Shown here in pieces: positions 1,356 through 52,752 of a stretch of DNA of 64,000 bases (the stretch's first letter is position 1; the number at the start of each line of letters is the position of its first letter). The notes below the pieces were generated by a model that saw nothing but the letters and a program-made list of their open reading frames with translations, ran no database searches and was not told where the DNA came from. The position numbers and the translations under genes are program-made. This DNA comes from Octopus sinensis. Its lineage: Eukaryota. The stretch spans positions 64,356,001 to 64,420,000 of the forward strand of contig NC_043010.1 of assembly GCF_006345805.1 (NCBI RefSeq). The letters are read 5' to 3'.

Positions 1356-1490
1356 TCTGCGCGAGAGGCGAGTATGGACAATATTGCACCAAAACATGTA
1401 GATGTTCTGGTTATGACAACTGCAACCCGATTTATGGCACATGTCCTAGAGGCTGTGCATCTGGATACAGGGGTTACGACTGTCAGCAAA
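1356..1490 (+). CDS. Exon A1, 8-Cys EGF/laminin-EGF-like module of a MEGF10/SCARF-like gene
   Basis: Acceptor tttgtttcacAG, donor GTAAGT, 135 nt, phase 1-1. Translates CARGEYGQYCTKTCRCSGYDNCNPIYGTCPRGCASGYRGYDCQQ. Confidence 0.92.
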
Positions 1491-2600
1491 GTAAGTATAC
1501 GTCTATACTAATAATCAAACTATTTCCCCACAACTCACACACATGATCTGTTCTTAACTTTAATTAAGTGGGATACAAGTGCATAAACTCATTAAAAATT
1601 TTTTTTCTGTTTGATATTGAGATGTCTTACTTAAAATTTTGATTGTTATAATCTAAGCTTAACAATGTCTATCTCACCTATATACATGTATTGTATATAG
1701 GTATTGTATATACATGTATTGTATATACATGTATTGAGTTATTCAAGTTGTCGTACTCTCTACAAGAGCATAAGTATATAAATACTTATTTTGCTAAGTA
1801 TTGAGTTATGTTGAACTAGCACTATGACCTGGCAACGCTGGGTCATAGTGCTAGTGCATGCATATACAGCTGCGTGCATGCACACATACACGCGAGTACT
1901 GTCCAAATCTCCGACCAATCACATACAGCTAGCTGGCATTCAATTGGCGTATCAAGTTTCGGGCATTTTGATTGGGTTTTGGAAAGAAAATTCACAAAAA
2001 AGTCACTTCTATTGATTTTTTAATGGTTTTACAGGGTGACTGGGGAAATGTAAAGATGTGCTCGACTAGCCTTGGACGGTTTTGAATGACCATAGAAAGT
2101 GCGAGCCCTCTAACTGAAAAATTGTGGATACGTATAAAGGACACGCACGCAGACATTTTGCCGTTTATATATATAGCGATTATTAATGAAAAGTGAGTGA
2201 AGTAAATGTGAACAACAGACATGTCTAACATCCTAGAATTTGTGGAAGAAACACCCACACAGGTTAAGTTACCTCTCCGTATCTAATGCACTCAGTACAT
2301 GAATATCTTAATGATGATAAAGATGATCATGTTGTTGTTGTTGTTGTTGTTCTTCTTCTTCTTTTTCATGTTCAAATTACTCCCAAGTCGACTTTGCCTT
2401 TTATCCTTTCAGGGTCGATAAAGTAAGTAGTCGTTGAGTACTGAGGTCGATGAAATCAACTCATCACCTACCCCGAACTTGCTGCCCTGTTGCAAAATTG
2501 TCGTCGTCGTTATTATTACCATTATTATTACCATTATTATTAATATTATTATTATTATTATTATTAATATTATTATTGATATTATTATTAATATTATTAT

Positions 2601-2815
2601 TATGGCGAGCTGGTAGAATCATTAATATGCTGAGTAAAATACTAAGCAGTATTTTCGTTCGACCTTATGTTCTCAGTTCAAATTCCGTGGAAGTCGATTT
2701 GCCATTTCATCATTTCGTGGTCAATAAATTAAGTATTAGTTAAACACTGGGGTCGATGTAATCTATTTACTCCCTTCCCCGATCTTGCTGGCCTTGTGCC
2801 TAAATTTGAAATCAT
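2601..2815 (+). mobile_element. tRNA-derived SINE, degenerate (a truncated related piece lies at about 2368-2500; paralogs near 53626-54045)
   Basis: Head tggcgagctggtagaatc, B-box-like gttcaaattcc, body ending in an (ATC/ATT)n tail, preceded by (ATT)n. Confidence 0.6.
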
Positions 2816-50700: not shown

Positions 50701-52617
50701 CAGAGCTAATGGTCCAACTCCAGCCTGTCGTTATCCAGCAAGGGACCCAGCCACACAGAGTAGATGGAACTAATAAATCAATGCTGTGGTCATGGAATGT
50801 TACTACCTGAGCAACCCTGTAGACGAAAATGGTGTTCATATATTAGGGGACCCCGACAACTTATCTATGATCCATGGTAGAAAAGAAGAATACAGGTGGG
50901 GTTAAATATGTTCCCGAAAGACATTACTGGTGAAACCGAAAAGAGAAGAGGTTACTTAAAAACAAACAAAAATACATGACACCGAACAGGAAGTATGATA
51001 CTGAAAGAAAGGGCCTGAAAGTGGTAATAGAAGAACTGAAACAGCACTTCGTTGCAAAGAAAGTAAAGATGGTAAGATACGACCAAAGAAGGAAGGGTTA
51101 CCACCAGCATGGGTTATTTAGAGTAGATCAGAAGAGATTCTATAAAGGAATAAATGGAGAATGTACAGATGAAAAGTTGATACCAGATAACAATGAAAGT
51201 CAAAGATGTTCGAGTGACATCTGGAGCAAAGATAAGGAGCACGAAAAGGATGCTGAATGGTTATGGTTGCAAGAACTGAAACAATCAGTAGCCTGTCCAA
51301 AACAGACAGAACTAGTCATTTCAGTTCGGAAAGTGAAGGAAATAAGCAAAAAAAAAAAACAAAAAAAAGAGCAACTGGAAGGCCCCGGGATCAGATGGAG
51401 TTCAAGGCTACTGGATCAAAAGATCTGGTGAATGTCATGCACGAATAGCTGCACAAATCAACACCTTGTTAAATGCCGAACAAGTAACACCAGAGTGGTT
51501 GACATTGGGTAGGACAGTGCTGTGCTTGAAAAACATTGATAAAGGCAATATGGTACACAATTACTGGCCGATATCTTGTTTGCCACTTGCATGGAAATTA
51601 TTAACTGGAATACTCGCAGAGTCAATGTACGAACATCTGGAAAAAAATTTGGAGTCCTGCCACATGAGCAGAAGGGTTGCAAGTGTAAGTGCAGAGGTAC
51701 CAAGGATCAACTCCTGATAGACAAAACTGTTCTTAGAGATTGTAAGAGGAGGAAAAGTAACTTAGCCATGTCATGGATCGACTATCGTAAGGTGTACGAT
51801 ATGATCCTACATTCTTGGATTATGGAATGTATGAACCTATTTGGTATTGCATCGAATGTTGAGCGATTTGCTTGGAAAAAGTATGGTGATTTGGAGGACG
51901 GACCTGGTAGCATACGAAAGAAGTTTAGGGAAAGTAGAAATCAGAAAGGCATCTTCCAAGAGGACTGCCTGTCTCCATTGATCTTTGTACTGTGCTTGAT
52001 ACCACTAACACTAATTCTCAGGAAAGCAAAAGCTGGGTATGTATTCAAAAGCCAGCAACAAATAGTCAACCACTTGTTATTCATGGATGACCTCAAACTT
52101 TATGGTAAAGATGAAGCCCAAGTCAGTTCCCTCGTTGATACGATGTACTAGCAAGTTGAGCGATTGCTGAGAGATTTGGCTTTCTTATTTGTTTGTATAT
52201 CATTGCTTTTGTTGTTGTTGATGATGTTTTTTACATTTGGGTAAACTCAGATCAAGAAGGCAGTCCCATGTTATTCAACCACTACTACTGCTGTTGTTTA
52301 TATTCTGATGAATCCTGACTGATTAGAAAAAATCTACGGTTATAGATATTCCACCCGTGGCCATCTTAAGAGATATTTAGGTCTCCATTGTTTAATGTTT
52401 CTTGTTTGTAGTCTAACAGGGTATTGTTTGAGGAAGATTTGGTCGCTGTTACTAGCAGATCAATCGAAAATATTGAGGCGCCGTAGTTGGTTAAATGATT
52501 TCCTATTATGGTTGTCTTGGTCATCAGTCATTGATTGATTTTTTGCCATCTTTTCATTTATGAAATGAGTTCTTTACCGTTTTACGCAATATAAGATATA
52601 ATACGTTTGTTTCACAG

Positions 52618-52752
52618 TCTGCCACGAAGGCACATATGGACTACATTGCACCAAAACATGTAGATGTTCTGATTATGACGCCTGCAACCCGATTCATGGT
52701 GCATGTCCTAGAGGCTGTTTACATGGATATGGGGGTTTCGACTGTCAGGAAC
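52618..52752 (+). CDS. Exon A3, 8-Cys EGF-like module (paralog of A1/A2)
   Basis: Acceptor tttgtttcacAG, donor GTAAGT, 135 nt. Translates CHEGTYGLHCTKTCRCSDYDACNPIHGACPRGCLHGYGGFDCQE. Confidence 0.92.

Follow-up and report, generated by a model that had tools for sequence, protein, structure and literature searches.

Eight tandem EGF units within one octopus receptor gene: exons diverging under positive selection among introns that gene conversion has likely flattened

The repeated EGF exons described here close a tandem array of eight ~19-kb units, each carrying phase-1 EGF exons in the order B-C-A, in which the exons bear a strong signal of positive selection at the amino-acid level and the introns were likely flattened between units by gene conversion. 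The explanation that we favour, with a confidence only a little past even, is that these are spliced EGF exons of an eightfold repeat in one scavenger-receptor-F-like receptor, shaped by selection together with conversion in an arms race with parasites or microbes. The window, by which we mean the whole 64,000-nucleotide stretch (G000:C14:64356001-64420000), lies in a 2.7-Gb genome and was analysed together with 200 kb of flanking sequence in either direction; positions beyond 1-64000 are numbered relative to the window. Its features are listed below, with the exon labels of a preliminary description of the window given as "earlier" labels.

1..61856, + strand: part of unit 6 and the whole of units 7 and 8, whose non-exon DNA differs by 2.9-3.4%
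1356..1490, + strand: EGF exon A of unit 6 (A6, earlier A1); type 2/6, which is basic, aromatic and the fastest-changing type
12305..12439, + strand: EGF exon B of unit 7 (B7, earlier B1)
16047..16178, + strand: EGF exon C of unit 7 (C7, earlier C1); acidic, one N-glycan sequon
30253..30387, + strand: EGF exon A of unit 7 (A7, earlier A2); acidic, net -5, one sequon
45575..45709, + strand: EGF exon B of unit 8 (B8, earlier B2); joined to exon C in contigs, with GT..AG ends
46495..46626, + strand: EGF exon C of unit 8 (C8, earlier C2)
52618..52752, + strand: EGF exon A of unit 8 (A8, earlier A3); last repeated exon
62857..62991, + strand: EGF exon Z, single-copy and membrane-proximal; 33 of 44 amino acids identical to the O. 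bimaculoides model

The array starts near -105900, and its units are 18.7-19.8 kb long except for unit 7, which transposon insertions have enlarged to 33 kb. Twenty-two of the 24 expected repeated eight-cysteine EGF exons are intact. The A exon of unit 3 (A3 in the numbering by unit) has two one-base deletions within an indel-rich stretch, and exon C of unit 4 (C4) is absent; both were excluded from every codon count. The 198 kb upstream of the window hold units 1-5, most of unit 6 and the exons for the signal peptide and the lectin-like domain, and the transmembrane, 3.6-kb charged and phosphatase exons lie 4-86 kb past the window's end. The frame of the gene was taken from the O. bimaculoides model P0014/P0059, and two NCBI models labelled Octopus sinensis (P0006 and P0011) match exon for exon directly upstream of the window. 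We infer that a single octopus gene of ~350 kb, encoding about 3,300 residues, runs from the array through the phosphatase exons, with ~27 eight-cysteine EGF modules, 23 of them repeated. Its parts outside the window are as follows.

-198400: signal-peptide exon, matching the O. bimaculoides model P0059 and identified by eye
after the signal peptide: Cys-rich N-terminal exons, from the O. bimaculoides model P0014/P0059
-149090: EGF Y, from the O. bimaculoides model frame
-139697 and -115566: exons of a galactose-binding/F5-8 type C domain, from a Pfam match in P0006
-108091: single EGF exon, from the O. bimaculoides model frame
67923-67998: transmembrane helix exon, matching O. bimaculoides P0059 and identified by eye
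80248-83872: large open exon with 1,208 codons of K/E/R/P repeats, downstream of the transmembrane exon
86303-150076: exons of two phosphatase domains, matching O. bimaculoides P0060

The annotations as consulted miss the gene with the eightfold repeat because they cut it into several models. The O. bimaculoides model has one B-C-A unit only, and this single unit may be a collapsed assembly; the O. bimaculoides gene is split in two by NCBI. In the O. vulgaris model P0041, exon B is identical to that of unit 1 (B1 in the numbering by unit) and exon C differs from that of unit 1 by two residues.

The preliminary description had reported, from hand counts, that duplicated EGF exons differ far more than their own introns and almost entirely by amino-acid changes, and an exact recount returned the same figures. 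Under the earlier labels, A1 and A2 differ at 28 of 135 nt and 18 of 44 amino acids, with 2 synonymous codons, against 8 differences in the 335 nt upstream; A2 and A3 differ at 16 nt and 11 amino acids, none synonymous; C1 and C2 differ at 23 of 132 nt and 15 of 43 amino acids, with 1 synonymous codon, and their downstream introns first differ at nt 178; and B1 and B2 differ at 11 nt and 7 amino acids, with 2 synonymous codons. The scaffold is intact in 8 of 8 window exons, all of which are bounded by AG and GT, have a length that is a multiple of 3 and keep 8 Cys. The exon excess over the 2.9-3.4% intron background was seen in 5 of 5 pairs (binomial p from 2e-3 for B to 2e-15 for A1/A2). For three window pairs pooled, the excess of pN over pS was borderline (Fisher p = 0.066), and it became decisive once the upstream copies were added. 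Conotoxins and MHC are parallels for coding change that outpaces non-coding change.

Across the full set of copies, diversity rises stepwise at the exon borders. Mean pN/pS over all pairs is 0.185/0.087 for A (7 copies), 0.160/0.083 for B (8) and 0.204/0.066 for C (7), and the mean pairwise difference in the 300-nt flanks is 0.022-0.051. Codon models were fitted to the 22 intact exons (131 codons) with our own implementation rather than PAML, using trees made from the exons and branch lengths scaled from M0. Under M0, omega is 2.58 (LRT 14.9 against omega 1); M2a assigns omega 9.7 to 39% of the 131 codons (LRT 65.4 against M1a), 30 of them with a posterior above 0.9; and the comparison of M7 with M8 gives an LRT of 65.6. 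The signal persists when four copies are placed on star trees (LRT 57), when the model admits double and triple mutations (LRT 37) and when the data are reduced to units 1 and 2 (LRT 50; Fisher p 5e-4). The view of this locus as encoding a multi-EGF surface protein whose repeats diverge within one polypeptide on a fixed Cys scaffold is thus borne out by the codon models on the 22 exons, with omega far above 1.

Several simpler sources of this pattern were considered. A multi-nucleotide mutation artefact can be set aside, as the selection test survives the multi-hit model. A local mutation hotspot does not account for the pattern: of the 99 differences between units 1 and 2, only ~13 touch CpG and 33 are transitions, and divergence is far lower at unchanged than at changed codons. 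In the introns, adjacent changes are somewhat in excess (28 against 11.5 expected). Among the candidates scored as an outside donor for the fast type 2/6, identity did not exceed 50% for B and 57% for C even in the best outside matches, so that the sister units are at least as close. As a control, another eight-exon EGF array in the same genome (C25) shows the ordinary pattern, with pS 0.51, pN 0.12 and introns that cannot be aligned. The idea that the behaviour is family-wide holds only in part, because exons of neighbouring paralogues are intermediate (pN/pS 0.106/0.059 over 11 exons and 0.127/0.141 over 10 exons) and lack a clear exon peak.

The introns have a different genealogy. Outside the exons, all 28 unit pairs lie at a nearly constant distance of 2.5-4.3%, measured over 10-16 kb, and exon distance ranges from 1.7% (units 1/5 and 2/6) to 25.6%, with a Mantel r of -0.19 against intron distance; the pair with the most similar introns, units 1 and 2 (2.5%), has exons 24.6% apart. 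The exons fall into about four types, and the introns form a patchwork common to adjacent units. Of the doubleton sites, at which two units share a minor letter, 80 of 84 in the exons pair units 1/5, 2/6 or 3/7; the proportion is 5 of 13 in the first 100 nt outside them, 4 of 15 between 101 and 300 nt and 15 of 184 farther away, and the exon divergence peak fades within about 300 nt. In the distant introns, neighbouring units share 28 of 70 events against 17.5 expected (p 0.004), and the count is similar with three reference units (28/70, 30/72 and 29/69, which are not independent, with ~17.5 expected). A divergence peak of this kind has been described for duplicated genes under conversion (PMC3924837). 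The intron genealogy is decoupled from that of the exons and neighbours share intron alleles; therefore, the introns have likely been homogenised, judging from these alignments by gene conversion between units, and they understate the age of the exons. Part of the neighbour sharing could come from duplication order. The models place the neutral distance between exon copies at ~2-14%, and unchanged codons have a synonymous distance of 2-11%, which bounds the age of the exon types only loosely. The introns probably make the exons look younger than they are, yet not by enough to explain the amino-acid change. Thus, the earlier statement that exons outpace introns stands as regards positive selection, which is not, however, the sole cause of the contrast.

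Sequencing runs allowed the exons to be followed outside the assembly; the library type of these runs is not on record, X9, X10 and X11 come from one study, and contig depths were not taken as copy number or expression. In contigs of X9, X10 and X11 (three of the four runs examined), the 785-nt B8-C8 intron is skipped exactly at GT..AG. The shorter side of this joint has 20 letters, below the 31-letter bridging threshold, and a looser 35-letter joint occurs in two runs. Contig loose ends at A8 (X9 and X10) carry C-exon ends on the upstream side of the exon and, on the downstream side, starts of both B type 1 and Z. The B-C, C-A, A-B and A-Z joins all exist in contigs as pairwise joins, as for exons spliced in tandem. 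No run that the search listed as carrying these sequences was labelled RNA, run X15 did not cover the exons, and the octopus model accessions were not found in the readable supplement files of one octopus brain atlas.

Two runs with other organism labels, X2 and X13, contain four and three A types, respectively. Among the exon letters listed for them, 31 of 33 are already present in at least one copy of the assembly, leaving 2 new ones (at least 18 further rows exist). The three X13 contigs that span the A exon differ from A8 at 19, 20 and 24 positions, and the first 96 nt of the upstream flank examined are covered by one contig with 1 difference; this is an echo of the exon-versus-intron contrast that is independent of the assembly. 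In this comparison between samples, made with contigs of four runs and one exon class, there is little sign of polymorphism at the level of individuals, and the exon types look like stable specialised types rather than individual hypervariability. The term "hypervariable" used at first was therefore too strong: there are ~four recurring types, found also under other organism labels, and the 2/6 type carries most of the change.

These data bear on two alternatives. According to the first, there was no positive selection: the exons are old or relaxed and the introns merely homogenised, or the array is an assembly artefact of joined haplotypes or polishing. Intron homogenisation is indeed supported, units 1-3 resemble units 5-7 as allelic copies would, and the assembly has one-base deletions in unit 3 and in one phosphatase exon. 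But an omega far above 1 needs no intron data, types 1, 2 and 3 are present within each half of the array, units 4 and 5 share intron alleles like other neighbours (4-5 events against a mean of 4.0-4.3), and the independent run X13 has its three exon types beside a flank whose first 96 nt are covered by one contig with 1 difference. We consider this alternative very improbable; that a haplotype join has inflated the unit count from four to eight is unlikely. The second alternative retains the same genetics with another driver, namely self/non-self, cell-adhesion or gamete recognition. Concerted evolution with positive selection on within-protein repeats is the pattern of fungal allorecognition (PMC1805685), and some receptor phosphatases adhere homophilically (PMC7959691). 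Allorecognition, however, would give many alleles per unit, and the same few types recur across the three organism labels, with 2 new letters among the 33 listed; the functions mapped for the receptor family concern parasite resistance (PMC12297450, PMC13712769). We regard such a driver as rather unlikely.

The residues under selection suggest what the repeats may do. Selected sites are scattered over the entire module and cover most non-scaffold positions. Derived residues relative to the outgroup are concentrated in unit 2, with unit 2 to unit 1 ratios of 13:0 (B), 12:1 (C) and 4:2 (A). Units 2 and 6 have a net charge of +9, 14-17 aromatic residues and no sequon, and unit 7 has a net charge of -8 and two sequons. 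The B exons of units 1, 4, 5 and 8 are 0-2 amino acids apart. Between species, the single-copy ectodomain is identical at 294 of 420 residues (70%) and the phosphatase region at 507 of 569 (89%).

The spread of selected sites fits escape from a binder as well as it fits a gained binding site. One could, therefore, envision that a parasite or virus docks on the EGF stalk, whose surface changes to shed the binder. The rapid change of the single-copy ectodomain also agrees with this, and the loss of EGF domains in resistant snails has been read as escape (PMC12297450). Escape alone, however, would not favour eightfold multiplication and the retention of types against conversion, and all three exons of units 2 and 6 have shifted coherently towards basic and aromatic residues, as if a surface had been gained; escape is in our view improbable as the main explanation. 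Another hypothesis, which derives from work on tandem Ig domains, is that divergence between repeats keeps near-identical modules from misfolding or from pairing their cysteines wrongly. The eight Cys per module and the 23 repeated modules, which diverged after duplication, speak for it, but like modules are three apart rather than adjacent, four B exons have stayed nearly identical, single-copy exons are fast too, and the C25 array keeps near-identical modules. We give it hardly any weight.

The remainder of the gene places the repeats in a receptor. In P0006, Pfam recognises a galactose-binding/F5-8 type C domain (PF22633, 44.6 bits with a cut-off of 27.8; PF00754, 33.8 with a cut-off of 28.2). 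Single EGF modules fall below the Pfam cut-offs; the profile of the module has SCARF1 as its best solved relative (8hna, E 7e-9). The canonical fucose-binding motif of F-type lectins is His...Arg-x-Asp...Arg. In P0006 and P0014, His is replaced by Ser and Asp by Thr with both Arg kept, and P0001 retains the His. At the other end, the catalytic Cys is Ser in phosphatase domain 1 and Gly in domain 2, both in this genome and in P0060. The HC(X5)R motif with its catalytic Cys is absent from the first domain, and the KNRY and WPD motifs of P0060 domain 1 are altered; the neighbouring sister paralogue P0001 keeps all three motifs. From these motifs, both tyrosine-phosphatase domains are predicted to be catalytically dead. 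Near 108600, a phosphatase exon lacks one base relative to the outgroup frame; this may be a read error like those in the unit-3 A exon, or real.

The splice phases are compatible, with phase 2 at the end of the transmembrane exon and phase 2 at the start of the large charged exon, which lies on the same strand and opens with a basic cluster; moreover, the O. bimaculoides accession P0060 adjoins that of P0059. The join from transmembrane to phosphatase exons was not present in any contig or model (11 hits examined, none octopus). We think it likely that the two are joined by splicing, with a charged linker of ~1,200 residues. The end of P0059 had pointed to a short tail with tyrosine motifs behind the transmembrane exon; this was rejected, because the matching stretch has no AG acceptor and phosphatase exons follow.

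We propose the following sequence of events. One B-C-A block (the number in the O. bimaculoides model) became eight, probably by the formation first of ~four types and then by duplication as a block. About 40% of codons, nearly all at non-scaffold positions, change about ten times faster than neutral. Short-tract conversion between neighbouring units would rewrite the introns and be purged where it overwrites an exon, leaving the peak within ~300 nt. In these three steps of amplification, selection and intron conversion we have high confidence. The basic units 2 and 6 would bind polyanions, as do the arginine patches of the SCARF1 EGF domains; an arms race would select for binding patches of differing chemistry along one stalk. 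The EGF repeats may have a recognition role. The stalk would lead through the membrane to a conserved dead tandem phosphatase acting as a decoy or scaffold beside active sister phosphatases of the same cluster. On the family evidence (the snail resistance regions and SCARF1 binding, both discussed below), an immune driver appears about as likely as not. A bolder version, which we offer tentatively and think unlikely, is a cephalopod decoy immune receptor that displays a panel of specificities along one polypeptide, made from copied exon-intron units that selection has turned into binding modules of opposite chemistry and reshuffled or resized by unequal crossover at conversion-prone introns, with the dead phosphatase set against active sisters in a paired-receptor system. 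If true, such a paired-receptor system would be undescribed in molluscs.

The gene points to the EGF stalk itself, beyond the lectin head, as a contested surface. The snail family maps to parasite resistance, and the accessible parts of PMC12297450 and PMC13712769 name no ligand or binding part; the octopus gene names selected positions. Its basic, acidic and ancestral-like modules form a natural series for binding tests. It also shows with unusual clarity how, within a single protein, selection can maintain differences between exons in the face of gene conversion.

The MEGF/GBD receptor phosphatase architecture is known from two snail schistosome-resistance regions (PMC12297450; PMC13712769). 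The octopus gene shares with the Biomphalaria SudRes1 RPTPs (PMC12297450) and LG5R subgroup 1C (PMC13712769) a signal peptide, a galactose-binding/fucolectin-like domain, many EGF domains, one transmembrane helix, tandem phosphatase domains (by a probable join in octopus), clustered paralogues and variable ectodomains. It differs in having whole 19-kb intron-bearing units within one gene with omega about 10, in the loss of the catalytic Cys from both phosphatase domains and in the putative 1,200-residue linker, none of which is reported for the snails in the accessible parts of those papers. The suggestion that the protein was possibly undescribed thus fails for the family, which is that of molluscan MEGF/galactose-binding-domain receptor phosphatases. 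The receptor family and the evolutionary signature are already known, the latter with precedents in PMC2955719 and PMC1805685. Within-protein repeats combined with dead phosphatases were not found in print, nor did any title or abstract start concern the octopus gene or a dead family member, in a search of mostly open-access papers; snail supplements may describe dead members.

Class F scavenger receptors (SCARF1/SREC-I, MEGF10 and CED-1/Draper) have a long EGF stalk, as in octopus. SCARF1, to our knowledge, is without lectin-like or phosphatase domains. It binds modified LDL via arginine patches on its EGF domains, and teichoic acid blocks this binding (PMC11563577); its binding arginines are conserved across species (PMC11563577), unlike the fast octopus EGFs. 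The phosphatase part of the octopus protein resembles PTPRU in its apparent catalytic inactivity, which here is read from motifs only. The ectodomain of PTPRU is not known to be related to that of the octopus receptor. PTPRU is a catalytically inactive receptor phosphatase that has been proposed to sequester substrates from active paralogues (PMC7959691).

With regard to the evolutionary signature, the red/green opsins (PMC3924837) and the Hessian fly SSSGP genes (PMC2955719) have introns more alike than exons, with exon differences kept by selection, as in octopus; those are separate duplicate genes, whereas the octopus units are parts of one polypeptide, in eight copies of about four types. 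The Podospora-type het-d/het-e WD40 repeats (PMC1805685) are, like the octopus units, within-protein repeats with concerted evolution and selected surface sites. In het-d/het-e, four positions on one face are selected and repeats are swapped between genes, whereas in octopus selection reaches ~40% of codons, the introns appear homogenised and no outside donor was found among the candidates.

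Each unit of the receptor array carries EGF exons B, C and A, and most A exons are preceded by a stretch that matches a relic of a mobile element:

window 51543-52148, old reverse-transcriptase fragment, with a matching stretch 5′ of most A exons

This fragment was duplicated along with the array units, and a copy that is not part of the array is ~81% identical to it. The amplification of the array likely postdates the fragment. Nearer to exon A, contigs from the spliced runs, which join EGF exons, also span ~115 nt of the intron directly 5′ of the exon and end at the exon start (window 52503-52622); this coverage may represent a retained intron or pre-mRNA.

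Three further mobile elements were identified within unit 7:

window 21237-24311, + strand, open frame of 1,025 codons with a reverse transcriptase domain, in a unit 7 intron
window 33708-35822, + strand, LTR-retrotransposon pol fragment (RT, RNase H, integrase)
window 37242-37979, − strand, transposase fragment (PF01359)

The first, which is 95% identical to a copy ~100 kb downstream, is likely a non-LTR element and was probably inserted recently into the unit 7 intron. The pol and transposase fragments contribute to the swelling of unit 7 to 33 kb.

Two other units depart from the intact B, C and A set. Unit 4 (L016, window-relative −46410 to −41643) lacks exon C, a frame-neutral absence, and its B and A exons are 4.5 kb apart, while exon A of unit 3 (L015) carries two one-base deletions. 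These may be real variants or assembly errors.

Between the transmembrane exon and the phosphatase exons lies a charged exon:

L022:6248-9872 (window-relative 80248-83872), open exon of 3.6 kb, short K/E/P/R repeats

Three tyrosine motifs are located close to its end. If this exon is joined, 1,200 residues would separate the membrane from the dead phosphatase domains.

Other loci bear comparison with the array:

G000:C14:64.57-65.32 Mb and C11630, both strands, cluster of related lectin/EGF/phosphatase genes, including P0001, the neighbouring paralogue with the active phosphatase motif
G000:C25:10.89-10.90 Mb, separate EGF array

The cluster contains inverted and tandem duplications, and pN is about twice pS in one of its exon classes. 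The C25 array shows the pattern opposite to that of the receptor array, in that its introns are unalignable, yet some of its exons differ by only 0-4 amino acids.
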